DNA from: Schmidtea nova
Taxonomy: Eukaryota
Direction: 5' to 3'
Assembly: GCA_044892505.1 (NCBI GenBank)
Contig: CM097883.1
Location: forward strand, 45,570,001 to 45,634,000
Length of the DNA: 64,000 bases
Shown here one piece after another: positions 13,740 through 55,186 of this stretch. The first letter of the stretch is position 1, and every line of letters starts with the position of its first letter. The translations under genes and the position numbers were made by a program. The notes under the pieces are model-generated. The model was not told the origin of the DNA and did no database searches. It saw only the letters and a list, made by a program, of their open reading frames with translations.

Positions 13740-13762
<23 letters not shown>

Positions 13763-30912: not shown

Positions 30913-31200
30913 GCAGCATCTGAAAATAATGTACAATCAATAAAATAAATTAAATACAGAATAACAACAAAATAAATTACCAACACCAAAGCGTAACAAA
31001 ATAGGCGGCAACATCTAAAAGAAATAACATATTAATCAAAACAACAAAAATCTTCAAAACTCACTCATGCGAAGCAGATAAAATCTGAATATGACAGCGC
31101 GTGGGCGGATGTCACCAAAGAGCTAAAACAAAATAGAATAAAAATTAAATCACACAAAAATAAACTTACCGCATGATTAACCAAACAAATCGGCGAGTTA
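30913..31200 (-). other. 5' exons of the divergent spliced gene (homologous to 12230-12540)
   Basis: GT..AG introns 31123-31169, 31015-31064 and 30920-30980; ATG in exon 3; phase-1 G|AT junction as in copy A; continues into the gap. Confidence 0.6.
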
Positions 31201-31266
31201 AGTTAGGCAGCAAAAAGCCGACAACATGAAAAAAATGAAGCAAACATACACACATACTCGATGCTG

Positions 31267-31403
31267 ATTGGCTAACCAACAACACCGGTTGAGTATAAAT
31301 ACTGAAGTCAAATCAGTATTTAAAAATGTCATTTTTACCAAGTGTAACTTGCAGTTGAGCACTGAGAACATTGTAAATCCAACTTGAAGGAAAAATAAAA
31401 GGT
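31267..31403 (+). promoter_or_regulatory. CCAAT-TATA promoter, non-coding first exon and splice donor
   Basis: ATTGG 31267, TATAAATA 31294-31301, Inr-like TCAGT/TCATT, AAAAG|GT at 31402; same order in unit A on the minus strand. Confidence 0.6.
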
Positions 31404-32452
31404 AATTGTTGTGTGTTAGATTTTTACTTTAAACCCTCATAATTATTTGTAACCATATTAAAATCAATAAGGTTTTCCGGAGGCCTAACAGCCTGACGGA
31501 TACTTGGGGCCTCTCAGCGCAACACAATCTTTCGGTTGTGAGGTGCTGATGCGGCGGGACCATAGGTGTATTAAATATTTGGAAAGCGGAAGGGGTTAAA
31601 TGCACATAGGGTATCGAGTAAGACCTAATGATCATGAACGAAATCAAGGTAGAGATGATCTAATATAAACGTTATGCATCACGATGATAGGGTATCGAGT
31701 ATAAACTAGTAGTCGTAAACGAGCGTAAAGTGAAGCCCGTTTTGTAGGAAGGATATATATCGTGGCGAAGTCTAGACGAGGGATAGACGTGTAGTGAATA
31801 ATATTAGGGTAGATGAATTAGGTGACGACGAGGGTAGGTATATGTCAACATTAGCGCGTACGAGTTCGGGCATAGTGAACCTAGTATCAAGGGTTAAGGA
31901 TAATCGATAACCTCTGTCAGCTGTGCTTAGTCGCCAGGAGAGATGATAAATAAGTCACAGGCATCGAGAACTGATAAAATGATGAACCCCAGTGAGTAAG
32001 GACCACAGGAACTTACGAGAATTACCCGACATGGTATGATCATTGCTGGTTAGATGAGGAAGTGATTGAGAACGACTGATGAGATTGAATGTAATAAATA
32101 GTATTATCAATAAATAAAAACGGTTGTAGTTGAGTGGTTGAACCTGATTGATGAAAATTAAGTATAATAGTGATATGATAATAAATGCACCAAATCGTGC
32201 GTAGCTGAATCGTTGAAATAAACAGCGGAGTACACTAGCATCAAGCTATCATCTAACACGACCCACATTAAGTCACCAACAATGATCCGGCAAAAATACA
32301 GAATGTACCACTCAGACCTACAAAATTTCGTAAATAATACGGGTGGGACGACTAATATAAATAGGTCCGTTCTACCAAAGAATCCGTAGAGTAAAACAAC
32401 CATTTTCTTTAGGAATACTATGGTGAAACTGGAGAGTTAACAAAAGAAGTCG

Positions 32453-33055
32453 ATGGTCGCGTGCACTATAAAGCTAGAGGATACCATCATTCGTAGGAAA
32501 CGGCGCACCCGTTCCGTCCTCAGACCAAAGGCGAACCCGAATATCAGAGGAGAGAGCGAAGCACCCCGAAAAGTTGTCGAAGTATCACGTCGCCACTTAC
32601 GACGATGGATGAGGGCCCATATGAGTTCAGCCGCTAGCACCCCAGCTTGCGCATTTGATCTACAGTTGCGGTGGGAAGGAGATACCGATTGGGTACCCTC
32701 CTCGGATCGTATCAAGCCGGAAAATACCCGATGGTTTTATCAATTCCTAGATGAGTTAAAGCAACCCCGCTGGCTACTGAGTACCGGAATGATGTCCGGA
32801 AAAGAGCTACATCAACTCGGATACATGCTGCTAGACAGGCCTCGGTGTGGCGACACTGGGGAAGTCTTCGCCTACTCAAACGCGCCAGGAAGCGTGTCAT
32901 TAGATCAATACCCCGAGCCCAAGGATCTACGCCTCTGGGAGGTATTTATCTTTCGAGACAAGTTAAGTTGGAGCCCCGCCCCGGAGCTATACTATGAAAG
33001 TGGAATCCGTCGTGACGAGAACACGGCCGACCAGGAATTACGACCCTTCATCTAA
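32453..33055 (+). CDS. Uncharacterised LTR-encoded 'RWEG' protein
   Basis: 200-aa ORF with three diverged paralogues in the window; in-frame ATG at 32420, just after the acceptor ttttctttag (32412), is cut off by TAA 32438. Confidence 0.75.
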   Translation: MVACTIKLEDTIIRRKRRTRSVLRPKANPNIRGESEAPRKVVEVSRRHLRRWMRAHMSSAASTPACAFDLQLRWEGDTDWVPSSDRIKPENTRWFYQFLDELKQPRWLLSTGMMSGKELHQLGYMLLDRPRCGDTGEVFAYSNAPGSVSLDQYPEPKDLRLWEVFIFRDKLSWSPAPELYYESGIRRDENTADQELRPFI

Positions 33056-33246
33056 ATCGCAAGGAAACCGATCCACCGAAGGAATATTTGATGTGTATTA
33101 AAAATAAATGTATTAATTTTTGGGTTTTGTTATGTCTTTGAATGTATGAAGCGATCTGAGAGTAAAACACCTGTTTGATAATAAAGATAGTGACTGGGAG
33201 AACAGACAAACCATACATAACCCGATTAATGATACATTTTACAGAG

Positions 33247-33810
33247 ATGAGTGAACATCCAACTAGGAACTACAAACAAGAGGCAAAAGAGCATAAAGCA
33301 CGATCGCGAGTCCTAGAAAACCGCTTGCGGCAGCTAAACGAAGAGCACCAGCGAATTAAAGCCACGTGGTTCAACCCAGAGAGGGTTAAAACCATCCTGC
33401 AAGCCAGATACAGGGCAGAACGAACAATCGACGAGCAAGCTAGGGAGGTCGCCGCACTAAAGATGGAGCTGTCGAATTACTTGAGGGCATCAACCCAGGA
33501 GTTCATCACCGAGCAATTACGCCCAGTGATCAGGGCTAGCACCTTTAATCGGTGGGTGGACACAATATCGATGACAACAAGTACCCAAACGGAAATAGAA
33601 ACCATCCCGATCACAACTACCACAATATCCCCAATAATTCTGGAAGGCTCGAAACGAACAAAAAGACGGAATCGCTTGGGAGCGAAAAAGCGTAGGGAGA
33701 GACGCGCATATGCAGATCGCGTCGGAATAGAGGTAGACTTGCTCAGTGGTCTATCCGAGCAAGAACTACTAAATGTAATCCGACCCTCTGTATTGTTAAA
33801 CTATAAATAA
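33247..33810 (+). CDS. LTR-encoded coiled-coil protein with basic C-terminal (NLS/RNA-binding-like) segment
   Basis: ATG follows the acceptor ttttacag (33244); KRTKRRNRLGAKKRRERR; homologous remnants in units B and D. Confidence 0.7.
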   Translation: MSEHPTRNYKQEAKEHKARSRVLENRLRQLNEEHQRIKATWFNPERVKTILQARYRAERTIDEQAREVAALKMELSNYLRASTQEFITEQLRPVIRASTFNRWVDTISMTTSTQTEIETIPITTTTISPIILEGSKRTKRRNRLGAKKRRERRAYADRVGIEVDLLSGLSEQELLNVIRPSVLLNYK

Positions 33811-34202
33811 ATGTATAAAATGAATGAGTTGACTTGTCTTGTTTGTTTGTGGAATGTCTGAGAATCAAATATAATAAAAACCCGGATTCATTTGAAGCTG
33901 CAGATATCTAACAATTAACTTACCCTAGGACACTAGAAAGGAGCTTAAGTGGGACCGAAAGAAAGCCACAGACACCTTCTATCGGTAGTGGTGGACCCGT
34001 GAATAAACAAGGGAATAGTAGCCGAAAGGTTGCTCACCTGCCTTGTCATTTCACAACGTTGACACAGCACCAACATGATGAGTAGTTAGGGATACATCAT
34101 GGGTGTCAGCGGGGGAAATGTTTTTATGTTGGCGAGATCACCCTAACGTATAAAATCATAAGGATCTCAGTTGTCAATCCAACCAACACACCAGCATAAA
34201 TT

Positions 34203-34220
34203 TGGGGGCTCAGCCGGGAT
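34203..34220 (+). promoter_or_regulatory. Primer-binding site, tRNA-Pro
   Basis: TGGGGGCTCAGCCGGGAT vs MLV-type tRNA-Pro PBS TGGGGGCTCGTCCGGGAT (16/18), directly after the LTR end. Confidence 0.85.
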
Positions 34221-34757
34221 TAAATCGATTGTTGTGGGAAAAAATGAATTCGATATCGGCGGACAGTTTAGAGCGCCTGAACCGGGATGAATTGAATTTA
34301 GCGAGGAAAGGTAAAGTAAATAATAACAGAGGGTTTAAGTGTCCTGAAGCAAGAATGAATCGGGTTGAAAAATAATAAATAAAAGTATGAGTGTAAGATA
34401 ATGAGATTGATGAACGTGATGAAAGTATGCATGAGAATGAAAGTATGAATGATAATGGAATGGAAGTATGAGGACGAATGAAGTATGATGAATAGTACGT
34501 GGAATAACAGTATGAAAAGCAAGGAAAGGTACGAATGACGTAATGTAAAAGTATGTGGGAAGGTGTGCATGAAAATGGTATGAGTGTGAGCAACTAGCAA
34601 TGATCATGTCGGGGCGACATTCAAGAACACGGGGGGATATACACGCAGTGACGCAAAACAGAACAACAGAAAGCGAACAGTAGGGCTACCATAGAATAGG
34701 AATGATAAATAAATAAATAAAAATCGATAACAAAATTAATGAGAATTCGTTCAGGGG

Positions 34758-35216
34758 ATGGAGAACAAAATAAAAGAAATGCAAACGTTTTTCGAGACAA
34801 ACAACGAAACAGTGGAGACCATAACGAGAAAGTTAAAACGACTCGAGGTAGGAGGATACCACGAACCGACAAACAACACAGAAAGAGCTGAAATGATAAT
34901 GAGCATAAACGAGAATAAGAACACAGTGGATACAGCAACACGATATCAGTGGTATAGAGAAAGATTAAACAACCCTGAGATGAATATCGAGTGCCACAGG
35001 CTAGAGCAACAGTTAACAACAAAACACGATGAGTGGATAAGAATAACAACAGAACATACGAGACAATATCTGACGTGTTATATCTGTGAAATGAACAAAA
35101 TACAGATAATGTTGTTGCCATGTGGGCATTTTCGATTCTGTAATGACTGTAAAATAAATGAACGATGTCCTATGTGCAACCTTCCCGTATCCGAGAAAAT
35201 AACAGTGTACTTGTAA
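34758..35216 (+). CDS. Coiled-coil + C-terminal IAP/MDM2-type RING E3 ligase-like protein
   Basis: CYICEMNKIQIMLLPCGHFRFCNDC....CPMC....I.VYL* at the extreme C-terminus. Confidence 0.8.
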   Translation: MENKIKEMQTFFETNNETVETITRKLKRLEVGGYHEPTNNTERAEMIMSINENKNTVDTATRYQWYRERLNNPEMNIECHRLEQQLTTKHDEWIRITTEHTRQYLTCYICEMNKIQIMLLPCGHFRFCNDCKINERCPMCNLPVSEKITVYL

Positions 35217-37370: not shown

Positions 37371-38241
37371 AGAGATGTCAGTTGAATTAAAGGTGAATAG
37401 AGATGAGAATTGAAATGAAGTAGTAAACGTAGTGTGAATAGGAGATAAAGTGAGTAGTCGAAAAACAGAGTAGTCGACAGATAAGGGGAAATTAGAACTC
37501 AGAGCCAGAGAAGCCTGAGAAAAAGTAAAGGGGATAATAAGAGCGCTGAGCGACAAAGTAATTGGGGAACTGGGGAAAAGTAATTGGTGTATTTGATAAA
37601 GAATAGATAATTGATGCGACTGCATAGATAATTTAAATAGACTTAAAATCAAGGGAAATGGGAAAAATGGGGATCTTCATGAATTATGACTACACCCGTG
37701 AGAGGGACGAGAAACACGATAACGGGGACGTATCGTGTAAGTGATTATTTGTTTTAAGGAAACAAATCAATCAAGCAATTCAAAGCAATCTAGCAGTCAG
37801 AGCAATCAAAAGAAACAAATCAAAGAAGAAGCAAAGCAAAAGCGGAGTAGAAAAGCAGTTGAGAATATAAGCAGTTGAGGAATAGACAAAATTGAGGGAC
37901 GAGAAACAAGATCAGGTATAATACCAATCTTAACGGAAGCAGAAAGAAAAGCAGCGAAAAGGACAAGAACAGGTAACAAGCCTAAGCAACAAAAGAACAA
38001 ACAAGTAGAGATCAGCGATAATTCGAGTAATAAAGAGAATCAAGAAGAAACCCCAGAAGATCTAGAAGTACAAAACGAAGTAGAGACGATAGACAGTGAA
38101 CTAGTCAGGGAAAACAGAACAAGAAGCGAATCAAGAGATAACGAAACAGAGAGTAGTGAAGAAGAAGAGTCGAATTCAGAAACAAGTGGTGAACTAGAAG
38201 CAAAGAAAACTAGTACAGTATTCCAAGATAGTGGAATCGGG

Positions 38242-41200
38242 ATGAGTGATCACAGAGAGGATCTAAGAGAAAAATTCAAGGGCGAACCATTCAATGGAGA
38301 CGCCAGTAGATTGGACACGTTCCTGAAGGAATTTGGCATATTCGTGGATATATGCGGATGGAGTGCAGAAACGTTAGCGAATCGAATCCCGCTATACTTG
38401 AAAGATAGCGCATTGGATCTGTATATTGAGAAGAGATCGGGAAGTAATCCACCCAGAACGTGGGAAGCAATCAAGGAGTTCTTCCAACAGACGTTTGGGA
38501 TAAATAAAGTGTTGAACGAAGCGTTCGATGAGTTCTCAGCAAGAAAACAGAGGAGAAACGAGTCAAATGCAGTGTACGCAAGCGAATTAAGAAAGTTGGC
38601 GAAACTGGCATTCAATAGAGGAAGCCCAGTAGACGAAGAATTGATGACAGCGTTATTCGTACGAGGTCTCAGGAGACCTGACATCAGAGCACAAGTGGGA
38701 TGCAAGGGATGTAAAACAGTAGATGAAGCGTTGGAAGCAGCCAACCTATTCGAATTGCATATGGCAATGAATGACATGAGAATTACGGCGGTAATGGGAA
38801 AAACGACAGAAGATGAAGAACAAGGAAAAAGAAACATGAATCAAAGTATCCCCCATTCGCAGAGATTGTTCAAAGAACCGCCAGCGAGGAAAAATAATGG
38901 ATATATCACAGTAAACACGAATGGAGGAAACAGTTACAATGACAGGCAGAATAGGCAATGTCAGACGTGTGGAAAAAACGGACATTGGCAACAAGATTGT
39001 TTTCAGAATGTAGCCTGCAAACTGTGTGGACAAAAAGGTCACTCAGAGAATCGATGTTATGGGAAAACGTGTTACACATGTGGAAAAACCGGACACATGT
39101 CAAAAGACTGTAATCAACAGAGAAGTTGGTCAAACAGTGGAAATAGACCGAATTACGGGAATCGACCAAGCTATGGGAATCAAGGCCAACAACGGAACAA
39201 CCCAAACAGCAGTGCAAACGAAGCTAGTATGAAAGAAGCTAAGTTGAGACAGGAGGTATCCAGATTACACGAGATAATCGAAAGCATGGCAAAGGGAAGC
39301 CAACAAGCTGCTCAACCAAAGATAAACATGATCCAGTTAATAGAAGCTGAGGCCGAAAGAGAAAATAGAGAAAGCCAACAGAAACATAATCAAGAATGGG
39401 CTAGAATACGACGAGAAGAAGAACAAGTCAGACAACAACGGTTACAACAGTTAAAGAAGGGAAATCCAAGGATCAACATGATGCGAGCAATGATGGAAGA
39501 AAAGCAGCAGGATGAGTCAGACGAGTTGGAAGTTAAAGAGAAAAGAAACGAAGAGCAGAAACAAGAAGAAGTGAATCAGGAAGTAGAAGCCGCAGAGCAG
39601 AATCAAAAAGTTGAAGAAGTAGAAAAAGAAACGAATCAAGAAGAAGAAGTGAGAATCAAACAAAGAGGAATGTTAGTGATCATGCCGAATGATCACGTGT
39701 GGCGATTCAAATACGATGTAAAAGAAGAAGTGGGGAAATTATTCAATAAAGTAAATAAGATGATTCCGGGAGTGACGAAACTGCCCAGAGAAGCATTCCT
39801 ACAAACAGAGGATTTGCCAGAAGTAAAATTGAAGATGACTGACACATGGGAAGATATGGGAGTAACAGAGACGAAAATAAACGTGATGATCATCAGAGAG
39901 GTGGAACCGGAGAAAATTCCCCCACCAGTGAAACACCAAACTCGGATCAGTCGAATATTCAAGGGAAAAATAAGACGAAGACGGTTGGAAGAAATAGATG
40001 AGTTAGAGAAAAGAATGGGAAAAGCTGAAGTAACGGGAAACGAAAGTGAACTAACACAGGAAGTTAGCAAAAACGAAGCGAGACCAATCGCGCATATTGG
40101 GATGCTGAGACACCCAAGACAAGAGTTGTCAGATGAAGAAGACGACAGCGAAGTTAGCAGTCTGGCAGGAGACATGCTAAAGGAACCGGAAAATGAGGAC
40201 AAAAAGATGGAAGTAGTCGAGACAATAGAAACAGTGTCGGTAAAGGAAGACGAAATTCAGAAGCTGATGGATAACGCGTTGGAAGTAATCCATAACGAGG
40301 AGTTTATCGACAGTAAACGACACCGAAAGTTCATACGAGCAGTATGGCAAATGAAGTATAAAGAGTGGTTACAAGAAAGAGAAGTGAGAATAATACAAGA
40401 ATTTATTGAGAAGCTTCTAAAAGAACCACTCAACGAATACATAATACAGATATGGATAAACGAGTGTTCACCGAGAATCTGGATAAGGAATCCAATGACG
40501 GATGGAATTTACAGATGGGTTGAAGACAGATTGGGAAGCTCGTACAAAGACAAGTTCATCTATTCGGAAAACGGATTGGTGAAAAAGGGAACGCATATGA
40601 TAGACACAGGCATCTGGCCAGGAGAAATAACAACGTTATCAATATGCAACACCAAAAAGGAAGAGAATCTACAAGGAATCGTCAAAGAAGCGAATACGTG
40701 TTACGAGATGAGAATAAAACCTCAGTTGATAGAGGCAAAAGAGAGAATCTTGGCAGAGAATTTGAATACGATGATAGAACAGATCATCCAACAAATCAAG
40801 AAACATCGAAAGGAATTGACGAAAAGCGAGTATGAGAATTTGAAGCAATGTATCGAGAACATACGAGATACAAGTCAAACGAGACATTCAAATTTCAAGA
40901 CGGACAAGCTAATTGCAAAGATGGGAAAAGAAATGTTTAAAAGAGGGGAAATATCAGATCTGAGGATTACCGTGAGATTACCGAACGAAGAAACAAGACA
41001 AATTGAGGTAATACCAGATAGTAAAGTGGGAGAAATAGTAGATGTCATCAATGAGACGATATTACAACGAGAACGGGAAGATGAATTCGAGGACGACATT
41101 GCGATAAAATACAAAGAACACCTACTGAATGAACGTGACGAAAGACGAGCGTATAAAATCGGCATATGGGATAATTATCAGACAATACATGTCATCAGAA

Positions 41201-44200
41201 TGGATGATGTGCCAAGAGCAACACCAAGAGATGAGGAAAGGAAAAAGAAACGACGAGAGGACGTTATGCGTAAGCTGAGGCAGATAGTAGAAATTTATCG
41301 GAACTGGCAGATGAAGCCAGAATGGGAGACAATATTGGGAGAATTGGATCTTAACAGACGACGATTGACGCCAGTAGAGAAACAATGGGATAACAAAGAG
41401 AAATGTTGGAAAGTGAAAAGAGGCGTGTATGAAGAAGATCCGGAAGGAGAAGACAGATATGAACGGAATACGAAACGGATATGTATGGTAACAAGGAGGA
41501 TATTACCAACGGACTTAGACGGACCAGAAACTGCAGTAATATGGGCAGAATTGGAGAAACAGAAAACGAGTGAATTGATCGAGCTGTTGAGAGGAAATAC
41601 TCGGGGAAAAAGACAAACAATAAAAGGCTTAGCACAATTCATAATCACAAATGGGGAAGACATAACGAACTTGAGAAAAGTAGCTAAAGCGATAGCAGAA
41701 TACAAGAGAGTAAATGAGTGGTGTCCGGAGCAACTAGACGATGTAATAAAAAAGTGGAGAAACAAAGAGTTTGCGGAAGAAACGCCACAGAAAATACATT
41801 TGAGGATAATGTATCCGAATCAAAGAAAAGAAGAGTTTTGGGTGATGCTAACGGAAAAAGTGAAAAGTGTTAAAGAGAAACTGATGTACGAACTACCATT
41901 CCACCTGCAACATCAAGGACGATCGTTGGATAACAATTTGGAAATCTGGCTGACACCAGTGCAATTGGATCTAATGAATACGCTAACAGTGGCACAGATA
42001 GTAGGTCAACCACTGAAGTTTAAAGAGGAAAAGAAAACGAAAGGAAGCATGAGTACACCAAGTCCGAAGAAGTCAACAATGACCCCAGGAACAAGTTCGG
42101 GACAAACAAGGACAACGCCAGTAAAAATCAGAGAGGGAACACCGCCAGAAGCGTATGACGTAGATGAGATACTAACAGACAGTGATGAAGCGATAGAAGA
42201 ATTAACAAAGTTGACTCAAAAACCAACGGCGAATATTTTTGACAGAATAATAGAGATGCCAATAACGTCACCAGCAGAAATCGACGATCAAGGAGTGGAA
42301 CAGGAGGTAGTCATAGAAATGGTAAACGATTCGGAAGACGAGCAAGAACAACCACAGTTTACTCAAGAAATGGAAAGATGGTTAGAACAACGAGCAAACG
42401 AAGGAAGGGATGTTACAGAAGAAACAGGAAGAGCAACGAGATTTGTAGAAACCGGAACTGGAATGGAAAAACGACCAAGAGGAAGACCAAAGATAGATCC
42501 AGCAACAACAATCCCAAAAACAAGGGAAGAAAGGAGACAAGAGCAATGGGAAATTTGCTTGAAGAAACTGGATAAAATCGCAGAGATCCGAGGCAAAGAG
42601 GAGAATCAAGTTTGTCAAGGAGAAGAATGGCTCACCAAAACGATAATGGATGTGTTAGCGATAATTGACCCAGAATTAAAGAATTTGTGGCGGATAAACG
42701 AACCCAGTACAAAGGCAAGGATGCTGCACAATGCGATAACACCAATTATGCCAGAATTAATAAAAGCGAAAACAAAATCAAATCATCTAGATTGGCAAGG
42801 AACCACGATGTTAATAAAAAGGCTACTTAACGGAGCAGAAACGGACAGCAAATATATGGTAGCAATCTCGTATACGATATACAATTTGCTAACGCTAAGC
42901 CGAGGAAGTCCGAAGTCAAGTCCGATGGGAAGACATATTAAAAATACGGCGATGATTATCGAGAAAGAAATTGAACCATATATCCTCAGAAAAGGAGGAT
43001 GGGAAAAGTTCATAAAAGAGAACCAGACAAAAGAGGGTTCAAACGTGATGAGAAAGAAACTTGAAGGAGTATTGAGAGAAATGGAGAATAGACAAACGAT
43101 GCAAGAAAACGGAAGATCGACGTTGAATTTAAACTCGATAATCATGATGATGTTAGTATGGTTGTTAAGCACGGAAGGTGTAACAACATTTGAGGTATTT
43201 GATTGTGATCAAATGAAGTTAGGAGAAAAGTACTCATTGAGAGGTACGGAGCAATGCAAAGATGCAACTCCAGTAGAATTGAAAGAGATCAAAAAGGAAC
43301 AATGGTACCACTTGTATCAAGAGGCAGAACTAATAAAGACAATGGTGAATGAATGCAAAGTGCAAAAGACGAGATTCGCATTCTATTGTGGGAGAGGACA
43401 TTATTCAGCAATTGTCATGCCAGGAACGGAAAGAGAACCAATCGTGTTGCAAGGGGAAGACTGCGAAGCATTATTTAAACATGGAGAAGTAACAACAAGA
43501 GATAAAATCAAGATAAAAGGAAAACCAGGAATGATGTTACAGCAGACGTATTATGTAGCAGGACGAATTACGGGAGGAGAAGGATATTGTCAAGGGGAAA
43601 CCTACCCAATATTCGGAGCACCTGCAACCAACTTAGTGGTGATGGATACGTACATAGTCGAACTGAAAAGCTACGAAGCATTCTTCGAACCGACAACCGG
43701 AGAAATGAAAACGTTATCCATGTGTAAAATTGACAGAAGCATGTGTCAAACGGGAATGTCAACATTGGTGTATAAACCGAAAGTGAACGAATGTCAATTA
43801 CAACTGCTACAAGGAGCAAAGTTCGACGAAATTCAAGGAAAAACCTTCCAAGAAGAAGACGATGATGACAAAGCTAGAGCAAAACATCTCAAAGAAGCGT
43901 TAGAGAACAAAAGACAACTGAAATCAGAGCAGAGAGAAAAACGGATAGAGATGAGAACCACACCAACAGTGTTGATAACCACAAACCAGGATGTGGGAAT
44001 GAGATTCATAAAAGGGAAAGCAACCCTTAAGTGCAGTACAACAGTATACGAAACGAACTATCCAGGAATATACGTGTCAAAGCAGGAAGTACCGAATGCG
44101 AAACCCAAGATCGACACAATGGATATCAAGCTACACTTGTATGTGAATAATAAAATGGACTTCTTATTCCATAGAGGACAAGCCTCGTTGCAAAAAGTGT

Positions 44201-47200
44201 ACTATGATCTGATAAACAACGATTGTATACTGAACCGGGAAATATTAAAGACAAAGTTGGCCGTAGCGATTACGAATCCAGATAGCGCGATGCCATTATT
44301 ACCACTGAGAGAAGGACATTTCGGAAGAGTGGTCGGAGAAGCAATGTACGTATACATTTGCGAAAAGACACACGCATCGCTAGCAGCAACAACGCAGTTG
44401 AAACCTGGACAATGTACAAACGAACTAGAAATCGATTATAAAGGAAAAGTACGATACGTTCAACCGGTGACGAGAATCATCAATCCACCAGGGTTTGAAC
44501 CAAATCCATTCAACTGTAGTAACGCGTACGGACCGCTTTATCAGAAACCAGATGGTAAATGGGTTATGTTCCCAGGAAGAACCGAAGTATTAGCACCAAG
44601 AGAATTTGAGCTAATGCAGTTGTCAAAAGATAGACAGTTCAGCGACGTAGATGTCTCAAACAACGGAATCTATAGTCCAAAAGATTTAGAAGCAGCAAGG
44701 CAGAATATATTATTCCCGGCAAGAAGAGAAGCATTACTGTCAAATATCGTAACGATAACGGGAGGAACGAATTATCGAGAAGGACCGAATTACGAACTGC
44801 TGTTGTCACCGGCACATTTCAAGAAAGCCACAGAAAACATGATGAAGGCAATGTGGGGAAGATTCCTGATATTTGGACAAATGATGGCTGGAATACTGGG
44901 TGTTATATTGATAATACAAATCGTCAGGGTGATAATAACGCAAATGTTAGCGTGTTTTGATATCTACAAGAGAGAGAAGAAAGTGAATTGGAAAATGGTA
45001 GTAGGGTTTTTACCATTTCTTGCGAAAACAATGGTGTTACACGGACACTCAAAAGACATACATCGAATAAAGAGGTTGTTGAAGATACTTGCAAAAATGA
45101 AAGGAACTAACGAAGATGTCGGAAGGAAATTCAAAAAGATAATGCAAGATGAACAAGCAAGGCGACAACTAAAGAAAGAAAGGAAAGGATTATGGGAAAG
45201 AGTGAGAGGATATCGAACGCAAGATGACTCAAGCAATGATGATGATGACGATGACGATCGAGGAGGACAAGCGAATATAAACCAGATTCCACAGTATAAC
45301 GAAAAGAGCACAGTTGAGAATTGGAGATACAGCGCTCCACCTCAATCAATGTACAACGAACCTATATACAAAGCGAAGCCGAATATGATGCAGATGATGC
45401 CGATGACAAGTAGATACCCGATAATTCCAGAAGACTGCAAAGTAAAACGAGGTGGAAGTGTAAACTCGTTAGAAGACACGCACACGATAGCAGTTATGTC
45501 CACAAATATGGGACCCATCTTAACAACAACCGTAGAAATAAACGGAAGAGAAATTGAAGCTATGATCGATACAGGCGCGAATATTTCGGCGATCGACATT
45601 AATTATATACCAGAGAAAAATCAAGGAGAAATCGAGAAGACGAATGTGCATGTAATCGCGTGCAGTCAAGAGACAGTAGAAGTAGCCGGAAGATGGTTTG
45701 TAAAAATTAAGCATCGAGGTGCAGAAATCAACACGTACATCGCTGTAATACCATCGCTGAGTGTACCATGTATTATTGGAACTGACCTGATGCCAGACCT
45801 GTTCAAGGAAATCGTAATTGATCTAGGAGCAATGAAGTTAAAAGATAGGACAGGGAAAATCTGCAGAATGAAAGTTAAAGTGGCAAGTGCGGAACAAATA
45901 GTAGTGCCAGCGAGGCACGAAATGATGTGCTACGTCAAGATCGATTCGACAATAAAAGGAGATATGGTATTCGAACCAAGTAAGAAGTTCGAAGCAAAGA
46001 AAGAATTACCAATGGCAAGAGAATTGGTTACGATAAACCAAGAAGGTGAGATACCAATTAATCTGGTAAATTTCGACGAAGAGGACAAGATAATATACGA
46101 GAATGAGAATTTGGGTAAATTGACACCCATGTCCGAAATCGAAATACCAGACAAGAACGAGAAAAGCAAAGACGAATTACCATGGAAAATCGACAGTGTG
46201 TTGTTAGACGAACGACAAAAAGAACAGTTACAGAAACTGTTGATGGAATATAAAGATATATTCGCAACATCAGATCTAGATTTGGGAACATGTGATGTAA
46301 CATTGCACACGATACCGTTGACGGACGAAACGCCAATAGCATTAAGACCATATAAACTGGCAGAAGCTCAAAAAGCAGTGGCAGAAGAAGAAGTACAAAA
46401 GATGTTAGATGCAGAAGTCATCGAACCTAGTTGCTCACCCTGGCAATTCCCAGTGGTGATGGTGAAAAAGAAGGATGGAACTCAGAGATTCTGTATCGAT
46501 TACAGACGATTAAATGCCGTTACGAAAAGAGATACGTACCCACTGCCAGACATAAACGAAATGTTGTTGACGTTACAAGGAGCAGCCTATTTCACGTCAC
46601 TGGATTTAAAGAGCGGATATTGGCAGATCAAAATGAAAGACGAGGATAAAGAGAAGACAGCATTTACAATCGGACGAGATCTGTACCAATTCAAGAAAAT
46701 GCCGTTTGGGTTAACAAACGCGCCAGCATCATTCCAGAGATGCATGAATTTCGTAACACATGGCATAAAACAATGCATGGTGTACATTGACGATCTATTG
46801 ATCTACTCCGCAACATTCGAAGATCACTTGCAAGACATCAGAAACGTGTTCGTGAAATTAAGGCAATGGAAACTGAAATTGAAGCCGTCAAAGTGCGATT
46901 GGGCAAAAGAAAAAGTGACATTCTTAGGTCACATTGTGTCAGCGAAAGGAAAAGAACCAGATCCAAGGAATATCGAAAAAGTCAAAGAATGTCCACCACC
47001 AAAGACAGTGACTCAAATACAAGAATTTTTGGGATTGTGTGGATATTATCGAAAGTTTATCAAGGACTATGCAGGAATATCAAAGCCAATGCAAGAATTG
47101 GTAAGACAAGACGTGTCGTTTGTGTGGGGAGAAGAGCAACAAGCAGCATTTGAAACATTACGAGATAAGCTGATTACAGCACCAATATTGGCCCATCCAG

Positions 47201-50200
47201 ACTTTAAGAAGCCATTTCTGTTGGCAACAGACGCAAGTGGATATGCAGCAGGAGCAGTACTAGGCCAATTTGACGAAGAAGGCAAGGAAAGAGTAATCGG
47301 ATATTACAGTCGAACATTCAGAAAGCATGAAAAGAATTACTCAGTCACGGAAAGAGAAGCCTATGCGATAATATTGGCAATCAAGCATTTCAAGTACCTA
47401 TTGTGGGGTCATGAAATATATATCACGACGGATCATCAACCATTGGTATGGTTAGGCCAACATAAAGAATCATCAAGTAGATTGATGCGTTGGGCGATGC
47501 AGTTACAAGAATACTCGCCATTCATAAAGTTTAAAGCAGGAAAAGCAAATGCGAACGCGGATTGCATGTCAAGGTTTACATTTCCAGAATTGGTGAACCT
47601 AAACGCTCTGAAAATATGTGCATTAATAGCGGAAGATTTGGATTTCAGCGAACTAAGGAAAGATCAACTCGAAGACGAGGAGTTGGGAATGATCAGCAAG
47701 TATTTGAAAGAAAGGGAAATAGAAATATTCGACAAGAACCAAACGTTGCGCGAACATATGCAGAAATATCAACATAGATATGTGATGGAAAAAGGATGGT
47801 TATTGATACAAGATGGAGAACGGAGATTGATGTGCTTACCTGCGAATAGACGAAAGGAAATCATGACTCAATATCATGACGGAAAATTAGGCGGACATAT
47901 GTCAGCGAAAAAGACAATCGGGAGATTGAGACAAAAGTATTTTTGGCCAACCATGGAAGATGATGTGAAAGAATGGATAAAGAACTGCTTAACCTGTGCA
48001 ACAAGAAAGAACGTCGGAACGAAGTGGAAAACACCACTAAAACCTATGCCAATACCTGCAGAACCAATGGCAACAATAGCAATGGACGTAGTTGGGCCAT
48101 TGCCGGAAAGTTTGAAGGGAAATCAATACATATTAGTAGTCACGGACTATCTAACAAAGTTCCCAGAAGCATTCGCAATACCAGATCAAAAAGCGAAAAC
48201 AGTCGCGAGAATATTGGTGGAAGAGATATGCTGCAGATACGGAACACCCAAGAAAATCCTAACGGATCAAGGAACAAATTTCATGAGTGAAATATTAGAC
48301 GAAGTTACGAATTACTTCCGAATCGCAAAATTACGAACATCCCCATACCATCCACAAACGAACGGACAAACAGAAAGGTTCAATGGAACATTGATACGCA
48401 TGTTGTCAAATTACGTCAGCAAACACCAGACTGACTGGGACGAGTATATAAACTTGTGTTTAATGGCATACAGAATGTCAATACATGCGGCAACAAAGCT
48501 AAGTCCATTCCAACTGATGTACGGAAGAGACTGCAACTTACCGATCGATTTAGAATACCAACCACCATTATCACAGTACATGGAGGTTGACGATTACGTG
48601 ACGAAGTTCAAAGAAAGAATGCAAGAGATCTGGAAAACGGCGGAACTGAACATCAAGTTCTATCAAGAAAGTTATAAGGATCTACATGATCAGAAAAGGA
48701 ACGTGAAAGCACATGATTTAAAAGTTGGAGATTGGGTGATAATTGAGACACCAGAGATAATACCCGGTACGGTCAAGAAACTCCAACGACTCGGCAAAGG
48801 GCCATATGAAATAACAACAGTAAACGAAAATAATGTGCGAGTACGATTGGTGAACAATCCATTGGTAAGACCAATATACGTGAATGCATGTCGATGCAAG
48901 AAAATACCAAAGACAGCAACTCTATCACCAGAGAAACGGGTAATGACAAGATCACAGACGGCGAGAATCAGTATGTTGCGAGTACAACAAAAGCCGCAAA
49001 CAAGTCTAGAAGACAATCGAAGAGAAGCAATAGACATCAAAGAACTGGCAAAGAGGACCAGAGAAATCATACCAGAATGGAAATGTTGGTTCGATTTCAA
49101 TATACTGTCAGAAGTTCGAAAGAATGTAATGGAGTATGCGAAGGATAGAACAGCACACCCAATAACAAGAACGCTGCTAGAGGAAATCCCTCAAACATTG
49201 AATCTACAAGACAAAGACGGTAACACCGCGTTGCACAATGCAATCAAGCACAGTGGGAACGAAAAAGTGAAAGAGATCGTAGAGATGATACTCGAAGGTG
49301 GAGGAGAAATTGACAAAATAAATTGGGAAGGAATCACTCCACTTATGATGATGACGATTCATGGAAGAAACGACGAGATAATCAAGCTATTCGGAAACAC
49401 CAGATCGAATTGGATGACAAAAGATAAAGAAGGACGAACGTTCTTGAATCATGCAATCGATAGAGCAAATCACCGAATACTGAAGTATATCACGGAAAAT
49501 GCCACGTGGGAAATCGACGAACTAACTAGAGGATCTATCATGAAACAAGCAATCGGGGTAAAGAATAGTAAAACCTGGAGAATATTGCTAAAGTGGAAAC
49601 GACCAGAAGGAGATTCGTGGGTCATGGATTGTAATGAAGTGTTCATAAAGGGAGAAAATGCGCTACTGAAACATTTATTAGAAGTAACATACGATCCAAA
49701 AACACTTGCAGTATTAATAGCAAGAGATACTCTACGAGTCAGCGAGAACCCAAGAGAATACAAGCTGGAAGACAGAAAGAAAGAACTATTCGGATTAATC
49801 AAGAAATGGTGCGATAAGCAATGGAATCCGGATATGAGCTTCGAACATTTCTATGACATCCAAAAACAACACAAAGAAATAAGCAAGCGATATAAAGAGC
49901 TGATAGAAGCATTGAAGTATGGACAATTCTTCAGACAAGCAGTGTATCAAGACCAACGAATGAAACAGATGCAAACGCGAATAAGAAGCAAAGCAGTGTT
50001 GTTCAATGCAAAAGCCGATTATCAAGAGAGATTAAACGCAATCGTGGCTAAAGCACAGGAGAAATTATCGGAATTCAAGGAGAATAAAAATTCGTTGGAA
50101 ATACTAGGAACAATTACAGAGAAAGTGCACAGATATGCAGAAGGGGATTATAACGAGAGTGACATAGAAACGATCAAGAACCAAATGCCAGTAGCATTCC

Positions 50201-53121
50201 TATTATCAAAGGATGGGAGATTGCCGATACACTGGGCATTACGTCGAAAGAAAGAAAACGAAGTGCTAGAAATAACGAAAGCAATGGTCAAATGCGAAGC
50301 GGACATGAATACGGTTGATGATAACGGAGATACAATCATGATAATCGCGGCAAGGAAGAAGACGAACTGCAAAGTGCTAAACGAGTTATACGCAGCAGGA
50401 ACAAAAATCGAAGGGAAGAATGGAAAGAACAATTCCATCATAGATATCGCAATACAGTGGAACAACTTCGAGATGATCAAGTTCATAAAGTCCATCAAGA
50501 GACATGAGGACATAGAATACCTGGCAAATAACGTAAAGAATTTCAGTCTAACAGTAATGATACACGACGTAGAGAAAACAAGAGCATTACTAACATGGGT
50601 GAATCCGATCAACAAGGAACCAGTGTTCAAGATCAATGACCATATGGAACAGAATCAGAATTGGTGTATCAGAAGCGCGTTATTAAGACATAAAAAGCCA
50701 GAGATAGTAGAAGAATTCTTGAAGAGAAGAGATTTGAAGTTCACGAACAATCCAAAGGAACCCGAACGAACGGGAAGATGGAAAGACTTGTTCAGAAAAT
50801 ATGTGAATGAATGGACAAATGCCAAAGGAGCAATCAAGCAAAGTAGACTAGAAGACAGGGAACCATCCAAGGAGATGGAAATACGTGAATTCGAGTCTAG
50901 CGCACTCGCGGTTCAAGCGTATGAAAGATTGATTGAAGAAATTAATGTCGAGGACGACATTTCGAAAGGACCAGGGGGTGGTTACAGAGACTTCGACGAC
51001 AAAAGTAACAACGAAAAGAACAACGAAGACAATGACAACAAAAGAACAGAAGATAATGAAAAAGAAAGACAAGAAGAACCAAAGCCAACGAGAAACGACA
51101 AAAAGGAAGAAGCCGAAGAACGAGAAAACAGCGGAACAAAAGATGAACGTACAAACTATGGAAAACGAACAGGAAGTCTACTTTGGAGACCGGAAATGTT
51201 GTGCATTGCGATATTGTTAACAATCATCGGACAAGGAGAAGCCAAGAAACAATACGTCACGCTAGAGATAATTAGAGGAAATGAAGTATACGAAAGAATA
51301 TGCTGGAAAGAAAATCTGAAGAAAAACGATACGCTGAAGTGTATGTTGTCAGACTTGAAGCGAGACGTCATCCAAATCAAAGGGTTGGAGAAAGAAAAGT
51401 CATACATAATATGCGCAGTAAAGCAGAGAGGAGAACCAAAAGCACCTCAAGTAACTGCATGTCAACTATACAAAGCAACAGAAGCGCTGAAGATACAGAA
51501 ATGGATTGAGAAAAGAAGCGAAGAGACAACGAGAAGAACAGAAGTGGAACCAGAGAAAGGGGAGAATCAAACCGAAGCAGAAGAGGGAATCAGAAACCGA
51601 ACAGAGAAAGAAAGAATAACCAAAAATCCAGCGGGCAAATTAACATTCCAACCAGAATTGATATGTGTAGCATTAATATTAATCCTCATTAAGAGAATCA
51701 TGGAGGACATAGATATCAGCGTGATGACGTTAGTAAACATCCAAGATCAACGAACAACGAATGGAAGATGTTGGGGACGAAACAATGAAGTAATTGGAAT
51801 CAGCGAAACAAGAGAAAGTCGGGAAGCAGAGACAAATGAAGAAATCGAAATAACAGAAATAGAGACAGATAAAAAATGTGAACTATGTCTCATGGAAAAG
51901 GCAGCAAACGGGAACAGACCAGGAACAAGCGAGTGTAAAGTGTTCCAAGCAAAGGAGATAATTGAGTTCCCAAAAAGAAAGAAACAAGATCAAGAAATGA
52001 TTGCGAATGAGGTAGTAACAGTGGAGATAAAAAACATGGGTCGGAGAACAATTGGGATGTGTTGGAGAAAATACATCGGAGTATCGACCAGTCACGTAAT
52101 ACCGCAATGCAGGACGAGAGAACGAGGAATCCCGTTTCAACTAAATGGATTCGAAGTCGGACAAGCCTACGAAATTTGCGTAATCCGAAGAATAAGAGAA
52201 GTAATACAAAGAAGCCTGGAGTGCAAACTGTACAAGACGCCAGAGCAAATTAACGGAACAAGAACGATCGAAATGGGAGGAAGTCGACAGAGGAAAAGAA
52301 AGTCAAGAAGAACCACGACAACCAACAGTCAAGAAACTCAACAGACAACAACGGAAAGGACGTCAATAAAAAACGAACCGGAATCAACGACTCTGATAAT
52401 ATGGAAGATCCATAAAAAGGTCCTAGAAATCTGTTGGACATTAATGCCAAACAGTATGAGAGAGTCTCCACGAAACTGTCAAAAGACATCAAATGACAAA
52501 AGGGAAATAATCGAGGTAGAAATGAGGAGGTTGAAAACAAACGCGGAATACGAAGTGTGTGCAATCGAAGAAGTAGACGCACAAGGAAATCAACAAGAAA
52601 GGTGCGAAACCTATTACACGCCAAGGAACATAACGATAAAAGGGGGAACCCGCAAGTTAGAATTCCGAGAATTGAGTCAGAAGAGAGAACAAAACGAGAA
52701 GGAAGAAACAATACCAAATCAACAAGAAAAATGGGAACCAGAGAAAGTGATCGAAGAAGTCAGACGGAGACAACAACAATACGAACAATGGGAAGCAGAA
52801 TGGAAAGGTCAATATGGCGTGATGATAAACCAAAGTGAAACTCCGAAGATGAGCATTGGGAAAACAATAATGGGATTAATCAGCATGGGAGTATTCATAG
52901 GGTGTATACCGCTGATAACGATCATGATAGTATGTTGGAGATATGGCATGAGAAATAAGACCATAGCAGTAAAGTGGCCGGACGTAAAGGTCACGAATTA
53001 CAACATAAAACTACCAAAGGAAGTACGAGAAGAACTGAAAAGACGATCAAAACACGAAGAGATGTGGGTACAGATCGAAGACGAAGAACTGTACGAAGGA
53101 AAACCAGTGATAGTTGTATAG
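38242..53121 (+). CDS. gag-pol: 4959-aa polyprotein Gag-ZnK3-UBL2-BCL2-Env-PR-RT-RH-IN-ANK-FN3-like-TM
   Basis: CCHC x3 (38959-39110); IDTGA (45568); YIDD (46783); ATDASG (47221); HHCC, MDVVGP and LSPFQLMYGR integrase; ANK (DKDGNTALHNA, EGITPLM, DGRLPIHWA); BH2-like YILRKGGWEKF (42979); glycoprotein 43130-45050. Confidence 0.95.
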   Translation: MSDHREDLREKFKGEPFNGDASRLDTFLKEFGIFVDICGWSAETLANRIPLYLKDSALDLYIEKRSGSNPPRTWEAIKEFFQQTFGINKVLNEAFDEFSARKQRRNESNAVYASELRKLAKLAFNRGSPVDEELMTALFVRGLRRPDIRAQVGCKGCKTVDEALEAANLFELHMAMNDMRITAVMGKTTEDEEQGKRNMNQSIPHSQRLFKEPPARKNNGYITVNTNGGNSYNDRQNRQCQTCGKNGHWQQDCFQNVACKLCGQKGHSENRCYGKTCYTCGKTGHMSKDCNQQRSWSNSGNRPNYGNRPSYGNQGQQRNNPNSSANEASMKEAKLRQEVSRLHEIIESMAKGSQQAAQPKINMIQLIEAEAERENRESQQKHNQEWARIRREEEQVRQQRLQQLKKGNPRINMMRAMMEEKQQDESDELEVKEKRNEEQKQEEVNQEVEAAEQNQKVEEVEKETNQEEEVRIKQRGMLVIMPNDHVWRFKYDVKEEVGKLFNKVNKMIPGVTKLPREAFLQTEDLPEVKLKMTDTWEDMGVTETKINVMIIREVEPEKIPPPVKHQTRISRIFKGKIRRRRLEEIDELEKRMGKAEVTGNESELTQEVSKNEARPIAHIGMLRHPRQELSDEEDDSEVSSLAGDMLKEPENEDKKMEVVETIETVSVKEDEIQKLMDNALEVIHNEEFIDSKRHRKFIRAVWQMKYKEWLQEREVRIIQEFIEKLLKEPLNEYIIQIWINECSPRIWIRNPMTDGIYRWVEDRLGSSYKDKFIYSENGLVKKGTHMIDTGIWPGEITTLSICNTKKEENLQGIVKEANTCYEMRIKPQLIEAKERILAENLNTMIEQIIQQIKKHRKELTKSEYENLKQCIENIRDTSQTRHSNFKTDKLIAKMGKEMFKRGEISDLRITVRLPNEETRQIEVIPDSKVGEIVDVINETILQREREDEFEDDIAIKYKEHLLNERDERRAYKIGIWDNYQTIHVIRMDDVPRATPRDEERKKKRREDVMRKLRQIVEIYRNWQMKPEWETILGELDLNRRRLTPVEKQWDNKEKCWKVKRGVYEEDPEGEDRYERNTKRICMVTRRILPTDLDGPETAVIWAELEKQKTSELIELLRGNTRGKRQTIKGLAQFIITNGEDITNLRKVAKAIAEYKRVNEWCPEQLDDVIKKWRNKEFAEETPQKIHLRIMYPNQRKEEFWVMLTEKVKSVKEKLMYELPFHLQHQGRSLDNNLEIWLTPVQLDLMNTLTVAQIVGQPLKFKEEKKTKGSMSTPSPKKSTMTPGTSSGQTRTTPVKIREGTPPEAYDVDEILTDSDEAIEELTKLTQKPTANIFDRIIEMPITSPAEIDDQGVEQEVVIEMVNDSEDEQEQPQFTQEMERWLEQRANEGRDVTEETGRATRFVETGTGMEKRPRGRPKIDPATTIPKTREERRQEQWEICLKKLDKIAEIRGKEENQVCQGEEWLTKTIMDVLAIIDPELKNLWRINEPSTKARMLHNAITPIMPELIKAKTKSNHLDWQGTTMLIKRLLNGAETDSKYMVAISYTIYNLLTLSRGSPKSSPMGRHIKNTAMIIEKEIEPYILRKGGWEKFIKENQTKEGSNVMRKKLEGVLREMENRQTMQENGRSTLNLNSIIMMMLVWLLSTEGVTTFEVFDCDQMKLGEKYSLRGTEQCKDATPVELKEIKKEQWYHLYQEAELIKTMVNECKVQKTRFAFYCGRGHYSAIVMPGTEREPIVLQGEDCEALFKHGEVTTRDKIKIKGKPGMMLQQTYYVAGRITGGEGYCQGETYPIFGAPATNLVVMDTYIVELKSYEAFFEPTTGEMKTLSMCKIDRSMCQTGMSTLVYKPKVNECQLQLLQGAKFDEIQGKTFQEEDDDDKARAKHLKEALENKRQLKSEQREKRIEMRTTPTVLITTNQDVGMRFIKGKATLKCSTTVYETNYPGIYVSKQEVPNAKPKIDTMDIKLHLYVNNKMDFLFHRGQASLQKVYYDLINNDCILNREILKTKLAVAITNPDSAMPLLPLREGHFGRVVGEAMYVYICEKTHASLAATTQLKPGQCTNELEIDYKGKVRYVQPVTRIINPPGFEPNPFNCSNAYGPLYQKPDGKWVMFPGRTEVLAPREFELMQLSKDRQFSDVDVSNNGIYSPKDLEAARQNILFPARREALLSNIVTITGGTNYREGPNYELLLSPAHFKKATENMMKAMWGRFLIFGQMMAGILGVILIIQIVRVIITQMLACFDIYKREKKVNWKMVVGFLPFLAKTMVLHGHSKDIHRIKRLLKILAKMKGTNEDVGRKFKKIMQDEQARRQLKKERKGLWERVRGYRTQDDSSNDDDDDDDRGGQANINQIPQYNEKSTVENWRYSAPPQSMYNEPIYKAKPNMMQMMPMTSRYPIIPEDCKVKRGGSVNSLEDTHTIAVMSTNMGPILTTTVEINGREIEAMIDTGANISAIDINYIPEKNQGEIEKTNVHVIACSQETVEVAGRWFVKIKHRGAEINTYIAVIPSLSVPCIIGTDLMPDLFKEIVIDLGAMKLKDRTGKICRMKVKVASAEQIVVPARHEMMCYVKIDSTIKGDMVFEPSKKFEAKKELPMARELVTINQEGEIPINLVNFDEEDKIIYENENLGKLTPMSEIEIPDKNEKSKDELPWKIDSVLLDERQKEQLQKLLMEYKDIFATSDLDLGTCDVTLHTIPLTDETPIALRPYKLAEAQKAVAEEEVQKMLDAEVIEPSCSPWQFPVVMVKKKDGTQRFCIDYRRLNAVTKRDTYPLPDINEMLLTLQGAAYFTSLDLKSGYWQIKMKDEDKEKTAFTIGRDLYQFKKMPFGLTNAPASFQRCMNFVTHGIKQCMVYIDDLLIYSATFEDHLQDIRNVFVKLRQWKLKLKPSKCDWAKEKVTFLGHIVSAKGKEPDPRNIEKVKECPPPKTVTQIQEFLGLCGYYRKFIKDYAGISKPMQELVRQDVSFVWGEEQQAAFETLRDKLITAPILAHPDFKKPFLLATDASGYAAGAVLGQFDEEGKERVIGYYSRTFRKHEKNYSVTEREAYAIILAIKHFKYLLWGHEIYITTDHQPLVWLGQHKESSSRLMRWAMQLQEYSPFIKFKAGKANANADCMSRFTFPELVNLNALKICALIAEDLDFSELRKDQLEDEELGMISKYLKEREIEIFDKNQTLREHMQKYQHRYVMEKGWLLIQDGERRLMCLPANRRKEIMTQYHDGKLGGHMSAKKTIGRLRQKYFWPTMEDDVKEWIKNCLTCATRKNVGTKWKTPLKPMPIPAEPMATIAMDVVGPLPESLKGNQYILVVTDYLTKFPEAFAIPDQKAKTVARILVEEICCRYGTPKKILTDQGTNFMSEILDEVTNYFRIAKLRTSPYHPQTNGQTERFNGTLIRMLSNYVSKHQTDWDEYINLCLMAYRMSIHAATKLSPFQLMYGRDCNLPIDLEYQPPLSQYMEVDDYVTKFKERMQEIWKTAELNIKFYQESYKDLHDQKRNVKAHDLKVGDWVIIETPEIIPGTVKKLQRLGKGPYEITTVNENNVRVRLVNNPLVRPIYVNACRCKKIPKTATLSPEKRVMTRSQTARISMLRVQQKPQTSLEDNRREAIDIKELAKRTREIIPEWKCWFDFNILSEVRKNVMEYAKDRTAHPITRTLLEEIPQTLNLQDKDGNTALHNAIKHSGNEKVKEIVEMILEGGGEIDKINWEGITPLMMMTIHGRNDEIIKLFGNTRSNWMTKDKEGRTFLNHAIDRANHRILKYITENATWEIDELTRGSIMKQAIGVKNSKTWRILLKWKRPEGDSWVMDCNEVFIKGENALLKHLLEVTYDPKTLAVLIARDTLRVSENPREYKLEDRKKELFGLIKKWCDKQWNPDMSFEHFYDIQKQHKEISKRYKELIEALKYGQFFRQAVYQDQRMKQMQTRIRSKAVLFNAKADYQERLNAIVAKAQEKLSEFKENKNSLEILGTITEKVHRYAEGDYNESDIETIKNQMPVAFLLSKDGRLPIHWALRRKKENEVLEITKAMVKCEADMNTVDDNGDTIMIIAARKKTNCKVLNELYAAGTKIEGKNGKNNSIIDIAIQWNNFEMIKFIKSIKRHEDIEYLANNVKNFSLTVMIHDVEKTRALLTWVNPINKEPVFKINDHMEQNQNWCIRSALLRHKKPEIVEEFLKRRDLKFTNNPKEPERTGRWKDLFRKYVNEWTNAKGAIKQSRLEDREPSKEMEIREFESSALAVQAYERLIEEINVEDDISKGPGGGYRDFDDKSNNEKNNEDNDNKRTEDNEKERQEEPKPTRNDKKEEAEERENSGTKDERTNYGKRTGSLLWRPEMLCIAILLTIIGQGEAKKQYVTLEIIRGNEVYERICWKENLKKNDTLKCMLSDLKRDVIQIKGLEKEKSYIICAVKQRGEPKAPQVTACQLYKATEALKIQKWIEKRSEETTRRTEVEPEKGENQTEAEEGIRNRTEKERITKNPAGKLTFQPELICVALILILIKRIMEDIDISVMTLVNIQDQRTTNGRCWGRNNEVIGISETRESREAETNEEIEITEIETDKKCELCLMEKAANGNRPGTSECKVFQAKEIIEFPKRKKQDQEMIANEVVTVEIKNMGRRTIGMCWRKYIGVSTSHVIPQCRTRERGIPFQLNGFEVGQAYEICVIRRIREVIQRSLECKLYKTPEQINGTRTIEMGGSRQRKRKSRRTTTTNSQETQQTTTERTSIKNEPESTTLIIWKIHKKVLEICWTLMPNSMRESPRNCQKTSNDKREIIEVEMRRLKTNAEYEVCAIEEVDAQGNQQERCETYYTPRNITIKGGTRKLEFRELSQKREQNEKEETIPNQQEKWEPEKVIEEVRRRQQQYEQWEAEWKGQYGVMINQSETPKMSIGKTIMGLISMGVFIGCIPLITIMIVCWRYGMRNKTIAVKWPDVKVTNYNIKLPKEVREELKRRSKHEEMWVQIEDEELYEGKPVIVV

Positions 53122-53595: not shown

Positions 53596-53684
53596 TGAAT
53601 AAGCGGAAAATTGTGTAAATACGTGTAAATAAAGAACCAGAAAAATCAAAAATATGGGGAAATTGATGTAAATATTGTTGTAGA

Positions 53685-55097: not shown

Positions 55098-55186
55098 TCA
55101 GAGTGAACGACCCTGTAAATAAAGTGTAAAAATCGACAACAACAATAAACGTATAGTGTAACAAGTGTAAATTTGTAAATTGCAGA

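Follow-up and report, generated by a model that had tools for sequence, protein, structure and literature searches.

Grohme et al. 2018 noted a BCL2-like motif in the giant retroelements Burro-2, -3 and -4; a ubiquitin-like (UBL) module precedes this motif, and env follows it in frame, ahead of the protease (PR), as described in the relevant part of PMC6431247 (2018/2019). According to the same source, Burro1-4/GYPSM1 and a Burro-like element of Dugesia tigrina have an ORF of ~5,000 aa that contains Gag, UBL, the BCL2-like motif, a mononegavirus-like env in frame, PR-RT-RH-IN and ankyrins, together with MATH/TRAF cargo and long LTRs, all of which are shared by the locus analyzed here. Since the presence of the domain and its place before env have already been published (PMC6431247), our finding is not a discovery. 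For the Burro BCL2-like motif, section 7 of that paper gives neither a fold test nor an analysis of BH1, nor does it map tail topology or processing. A functional test of the domain was not found in the literature searched, which included parts of PMC8532177 and PMC12440569; Grohme 2018 and Lee 2026 with their supplements were outside this scope and may contain one. BCL-2 folds of low identity have also been captured in the mobile genomes of viruses (ASFV A179L, KsBcl-2 and BHRF1, the motif-less DPV022 and F1L, and the non-apoptotic A52 and B14). However, these viral mimics are stand-alone genes of DNA viruses, whereas the element's version is a domain of a retroelement polyprotein and is tied to Env biogenesis.

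Here, we have analyzed a stretch of 64,000 nucleotides from Schmidtea nova (contig CM097883.1 of assembly GCA_044892505.1, positions 45,570,001 to 45,634,000; hereafter the window, numbered from its first letter). A BCL-2-like block lies in frame within one giant ORF, in which position 42547 corresponds to codon 1557. Pfam matches in this ORF comprise zinc knuckles, a Monjiviricetes-type fusion glycoprotein, aspartic protease, RT, RNase H, integrase and ankyrins. The features of the element are as follows.

30913..34196, + strand: 5' LTR, starting inside the N stretch before 30913 and containing two ORFs without a Pfam match; matches the LTRs of sister copies
34203..34220, + strand: primer-binding-site-like 18-mer just after the 5' LTR, presumably resembling a tRNA-Pro primer-binding site
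34743..35216, + strand: accessory ORF with a C3HC4 RING at its C-terminus (PF13920, E 3.4e-9)
37879..53121, + strand: polyprotein ORF, 5,080 aa, with Gag (capsid-like region, CCHC knuckles), helical/UBL modules, BCL-2, signal, Env, PR, RT, RNase H, integrase, ankyrins and a C-terminal TM
39319, 39469, 39874, 40093, 41476, 45484, 47611 and 48964, + strand: candidate protease sites (five-residue motif at domain borders)
41476..42060, + strand: last candidate protease site (41476, aa 1200) by motif, then a helical and ubiquitin-like module (UBL via homologs)
42472..42492, + strand: RGRP motif upstream of the domain, which we take to be AT-hook-like; also in families B, F and C and in the external proteins P0003 and P0005
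42604..43026, + strand: BCL-2-fold domain, predicted alpha1-alpha8 (AlphaFold2 model with residues 19/22-160 aligned structurally; Foldseek; profiles)
42841-42852, + strand: degenerate BH1, TDSK, aligned to the NWGR columns
42979-43011, + strand: BH2, YILRKGGWEKF, matching [WY][ILV]xxxGGWxx[FLI]
43027..43137, + strand: variable linker, partly helical at low confidence (pLDDT <50); 40% identity between families A and B, pN/pS 0.57
43138..43188, + strand: internal signal-peptide-like segment with a 10-aa hydrophobic core and a small-residue c-region; cleavage predicted before 43189 (site by eye)
43189..44937, + strand: Env, Monjiviricetes-type fusion glycoprotein ectodomain (PF24664, E 3.8e-74) with a C-terminal TM by hydropathy at 44881-44937
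53667..55097, + strand: accessory intronless TRAF-like ORF with RING, zinc finger and MATH (PF22486, E 3e-27; PF21363, E 2.6e-4)
56516..56832, + strand: 3' LTR remnant of 317 nt, identical to 33859-34175 and running into N

The window's copy lacks ~3.6 kb at its 3' end that are present there in three sister copies. Two of the three sister copies examined have complete LTRs (TG...CA, 3.25-3.3 kb), and the paired LTR sequences are 99.9% identical within each of the three, so the window's family (family A) is young. Of 1,099 candidate copies in the host genome, 150 were scored; 139 of these are 76-100% identical to the block and the remaining 11 (family B) 65-66%. One giant ORF in which env is placed in frame between gag and pol, the PR-RT-RH-IN order, long LTRs and high copy number agree with Burro, as does the cargo of UBL (via homologs only), BCL2-like domain, MATH/TRAF and ankyrins. 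Thus, the element is a young, high-copy giant Ty3/gypsy element of the Burro type, an assignment that rests on architecture. Two differences from the published elements should be noted. IAP-type cargo is described in Burro (PMC6431247), whereas Pfam found no BIR domain in the scanned ORFs of the window, and the MATH/TRAF gene is a separate ORF downstream of ORF1 in the window, but Burro1 carries it within ORF1, and in the D. tigrina element it is found upstream (PMC6431247). In family F (L108, about 6190-6690), a MATH-like domain is found inside ORF1, between two UBL modules. Within 37700-45600, 11 joints were seen in four contig sets (of unknown kind, all belonging to one study), none of them with GT..AG ends.

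Several further observations were made in the window. The two ORFs inside the LTR (32441-33055 and 33166-33810; 204 and 214 codons) have no significant Pfam match, and the element's leader contains a 19-nt tandem array (36050-36600). The region downstream of the ankyrins (50900-53121), also without a Pfam match, has hydrophobic segments at 51172 and 51634 and the C-terminal TM at 52876, possibly a second membrane protein. A coiled-coil ORF of 396 aa (55157-56347) follows the TRAF gene. Outside the element, we observed an older relative of the LTR end (26101-26669, 72% identical), a perfect inverted repeat of 1.94 kb (13751-18478), whose ends recur at 57202-57392, and near-identical tandem duplications within 1-6011.

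The window sequence alone gave no BCL-2 match in Pfam or in a phmmer search of the PDB, and no usable match in the ESM Atlas. BCL-2 appeared in none of the 379 candidates from a word-indexed search of longer proteins, and a profile of families A and B had no BCL-2 match. However, eight families in the host genome (A, B, C, D, E, F, H and I) carry a homologous domain at the same place. The six families other than A and B, which were retrieved with PF00452, PF24664 and two outside homologs, have ORFs of ~3,060-5,000 aa, in which this position is occupied by a helical domain with GGW at its end. Family C, found by the BCL-2 model, passes the PF00452 cut-off (32.1 bits), and families D and E, found via env alone, match PF00452 as well (E 1e-4 and 7e-4). 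Weaker matches were obtained for H (0.009), F (0.02), which is nearest to the window's family, and I (0.07). The A/B and C/D/E profiles align with each other (E 1.2e-5, 114 columns), and BAX (1.5e-3) and BOK (1.8e-3) were top-ranked in a PDB search with a profile from which C was left out. A 28-row profile of element sequences only matches Bcl-xL (E 7e-8), a value that is not wholly independent because the rows include some first found with a BCL-2-biased profile. Judged from these profiles, the homology of the window's copy to PF00452 is transitive only, through its relatives. Searching 1.84 billion representatives yielded 16 proteins. Ten of them are element-like, of which 6 show the env start, 1 shows Gag only and 3 are fragments placed in this group by similarity. 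The others comprise 3 free-standing BCL-2 proteins and also 3 repeat proteins (P0002, P0015 and P0017), the latter of which were dropped.

AlphaFold2, run on the 28-row alignment with element sequences as its only input, predicted eight helices. The best model reached pLDDT 74.8 and pTM 0.69, and the other four of the five had pLDDT 53.8-60.6. When this model was compared by VIA with 48,161 chains, the top 30 rows were all BCL-2-fold proteins, led by Bfl-1 (Z 13.2, rmsd 2.9 A, 136 residues), and the first unrelated row had Z 7.8 over 68 residues. In the Foldseek search of the PDB, 46 of the 47 listed rows name BCL-2 family proteins (TM ~0.6, best E 1.1e-3), and the viral library was led by viral BCL-2 proteins (best E 0.012); no row in either library reached E <0.001. 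The element domain is thus predicted to retain the BCL-2 fold, and we regard fold and homology to BCL-2 together as very nearly certain. The comparison with the BCL2 fold by AlphaFold and Foldseek had been proposed in an earlier note, made from the letters of the window alone, which described a helical BCL2-like block inside Gag; its identity is borne out by the homology across families and the predicted fold. The limits of the block need correction: the fold occupies model residues ~20-160, whereas 43027-43131 belongs to the variable linker, which is not conserved. In addition, 'inside Gag' holds only in the sense that the domain lies at the extreme C-terminus of the Gag side and is separated from the zinc knuckles by ~1,140 aa.

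There is one match in the ORF to the BH2 pattern, which was taken from the earlier note, and 2 of 5,000 shuffled versions of the ORF contain it; its GGW is almost invariant across the 28-row alignment. The same note had found NWGR of BH1 not to be evident, and the aligned residues agree with this. In the NWGR columns, the 18 element rows have Trp in none, Gly in 1, Arg/Lys in 14 and a small residue three places on in 2, against 10, 4, 9 and 4, respectively, of the 12 host-type rows. Compared with cellular BCL-2 proteins (Bfl-1/A1, Bcl-xL, BAX, BOK and BAK; PF00452), the element domain shares the predicted eight-helix fold, the GGW of BH2 and a hydrophobic segment after alpha8, but it lacks NWGR, is part of a polyprotein and lacks Gly-Asp at the BH3 position, as seen by eye in the model and sequence of the window's domain. 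A predicted complex of the domain with a 36-aa BH3-like stretch of the host (L035), in which the alignment was unused and the partner fold was uncertain, scored 0.01 and carries no weight for or against binding. The host genome contains many divergent host-type BCL-2 loci (L035-L043, L046, L054, L056, L060 and L063). NWGR is kept in only two of the nine tabulated, and L046, L060 and L063 are similar, stop-bearing copies.

The hydrophobic core (43138-43167) begins 45 aa after GGW and lies 9 aa before VFDC, and the Env match follows. All 14 element rows show a core of 10-14 aa located 27-59 aa after GGW and 6-11 aa before [AV][YF]DC, and 13 of them have small residues at -3 and -1 of a site placed by eye two residues before this motif. 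In the three free-standing BCL-2 proteins, by contrast, the tail begins 14-19 aa after GGW and ends the protein, whereas that of the element is signal-peptide-shaped. The possibility that the segment is a captured BCL-2 tail was rejected by distance, length and the fixed spacing to the Env start, and by its sequence the segment is most plausibly the internal signal peptide of Env itself. With Gag ahead of the segment and PR-RT-IN behind the TM of Env, cleavage would keep the segment attached to BCL-2 on the cytosolic side, where it is likely to be retained as the C-terminal membrane tail of the predicted BCL-2-bearing product. This topology supports, by inference, the dual role as tail anchor and Env signal suggested for the segment in the earlier note. 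A second, intramembrane cut by signal peptide peptidase could remove it. In a model extended through the segment, residues 162-220 have pLDDT <50, so its alignment to full-length BAX is uninformative on whether the tail fills the groove. A single hydrophobic segment that translocates a glycoprotein and stays on the upstream cytosolic protein is known from the flavivirus/HCV capsid anchor and the foamy-virus Env leader. The upstream protein in those viruses is a capsid or leader, often trimmed off by a second protease, whereas here it is a predicted BCL-2-fold domain.

How the product would be released was addressed with a five-residue motif, [RKQHT]I[NSCAG][MAV][MLIV], which was defined from matches in the window's own ORF, where it occurs 8 times versus 0.8 in shuffles. 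Its sites include positions immediately upstream of PR, between RNase H and integrase, and downstream of integrase. The motif recurs at the same borders in held-out stretches of families B and F (4, 3 and 2 matches versus 0.04-0.4), and a look-alike of the aa 1200 site is present at the aligned place in both. It is a candidate cleavage signature of the element's protease in families A, B and F; the motif differs in C, D, E, H and I. Even with a looser pattern, no candidate site was found between aa 1200 and the signal segment in A, B or F, and the last one lies ~350 aa upstream of the domain. These sites do not support a free BCL-2 protein released by the element's protease, as the earlier note had supposed. 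Given that no candidate motif adjoins the domain, a UBL-BCL2-tail product of ~570 aa is the likelier outcome. If the motifs are protease sites, this product would consist of the helical module, UBL, an acidic linker, the AT-hook-like motif, BCL-2 and the tail; splicing might yield further products. UBL itself has no Pfam match in the window's copy and was identified by PF00240 in families I (E 3e-5) and H (4e-3).

Between families A and B, where synonymous sites are near saturation, pN/pS is 0.20 (0.14-0.25) for the domain and 0.18 for the protease, versus 0.57 for the linker after the domain. Within family A, the domain value is 0.04 (29 copies, top scorers and thus biased down). Values of 0.38 for D versus E and 0.33 (0.11-1.37) for two C copies are both above those of Env or RT. 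These ratios indicate that the domain is under purifying selection. Judged by the identities between A and F (domain 31%, capsid-like region 47%, Env 48%, RT-RNase H 89%), it also evolves fast. Trees of RT and of the domain for the eight families recover the same groups, (A,B,F), C and (D,E,H,I). In a tree of 15 element rows (3 element fragments left out) and 12 host-type rows (9 of the 14 host-genome loci examined plus 3 proteins), the element rows fall on one side of a branch (support 94/86, not starred), and the donor subfamily of BCL-2 was not recovered. The simplest reading of these trees is that the ancestor of the clade captured a BCL-2 gene once, long ago. Separately, the Env ectodomain (43189-44880, compared with L031) is 97% identical between A and B with dS 0.31, whereas most flanks range from dS 1.2 to saturated, so env was apparently exchanged recently between the two families.

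With regard to function, we tentatively favor, at somewhat less than even probability, a divergent BCL-2 homolog tethered to the ER membrane that would act as a pro-survival decoy dampening host cell death. After a single ancient capture of the gene by the clade's ancestor, the internal signal would insert with its N-terminus cytosolic, and signal peptidase would free Env while the segment stays on the Gag side, which would restore the usual BCL-2 layout of a cytosolic domain with a C-terminal membrane tail. The element's protease would then cut near aa 1200, giving the ~570-aa helical-UBL-AT-hook-BCL2-tail product. In the last and weakest step, this product would bind host pro-death BCL-2 relatives via a non-canonical groove. 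In NWGR, both Gly and Arg are important for the binding of BH3 (PMC9027176). Deerpox DPV022 is without BH motifs, yet binds Bak, Bax and Bim (PMC11209288), and this precedent, together with the basic residue at the BH1 Arg position in most element rows and the protection of stem cells by the Burro1 IAP (as summarised in PMC13465017), argues by analogy only for a pro-survival role. The argument from BH1 loss against such a role is weakened, although not removed, by the divergence of the host-type rows too. On the other hand, an ER tether would place the domain away from mitochondria, and a 10-aa core would be short for a stable anchor. Since the motif-less DPV022 binds partners, whereas the vaccinia proteins A52 and B14 have the fold but neither a groove nor any influence on apoptosis (PMC2494871), the function is not decidable by sequence.

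A52 and B14 are also the model for an alternative that we consider unlikely, namely that the domain keeps the BCL-2 fold without BH3 binding and serves as a scaffold blocking innate or stress signaling (NF-kB, TRAF or ER stress). The clade-wide loss of the BH1 Trp and Gly, bulkier residues on the groove floor, rapid divergence of the domain and the presence of TRAF, RING and ankyrin genes in the same element are all consistent with it. However, the model scores higher against pro-survival proteins of cells (Z 12-13) than against A52 (Z 8.9) or N1 (Z 8.3), BH2 and the basic BH1 residue are retained, and a partner for such a scaffold was not identified. Another alternative, to which we give a slightly lower probability still, is a matrix-like structural part of the particle, in which the domain would be the membrane-proximal module linking Gag to the Env-holding membrane, possibly bending this membrane with its central helices, with little effect on cell death. 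The signal segment is immediately preceded by the domain in each of the eight families examined and in the six external proteins showing the env start, while other cargo changes place (MATH is a separate ORF in the window, but lies within ORF1 in family F), and the domain is made 1:1 with capsid and Env from one ORF. A constant position is less telling than it appears, as the families were retrieved by BCL-2 or env searches, which did not systematically cover env-bearing relatives without the domain. Moreover, the candidate protease sites would split the domain from the capsid and knuckles, and the domain is much less conserved than capsid or Env.

The view that the BCL-2 likeness is due to chance, that is, a generic helical bundle with GGW, seems highly improbable and is already largely refuted. 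It draws on the missing single-sequence match and on the fact that helical bundles can reach high Z. However, independent families match PF00452 at the same position, and the 30 BCL-2-fold rows rank above all unrelated ones, with 108-141 aligned residues compared with at most 84. The motif was also noted independently in print (PMC6431247).

Returning to the pro-survival decoy, a more specific form of it appears rather doubtful. In this form, Burro elements would have reassembled a membrane-anchored BCL-2 protein through polyprotein processing, with the captured domain using the signal peptide of Env as its tail. Each Env made would leave one UBL-BCL2 protein on the ER, which may hold host effectors of the BAK/BOK type in check without NWGR and would thereby couple Env production to survival of the producer cell. 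With the limits of the domain, its groove residues and the ~570-aa product predicted here, the role becomes directly testable on the isolated domain. The IAP of Burro1 protects stem cells from apoptosis (as summarised in PMC13465017). If the BCL-2-like domain is pro-survival, Burro elements would carry a second death brake besides IAP, kept in all eight families examined, and would provide a case of a BCL-2 mimic acting from a retroelement polyprotein.
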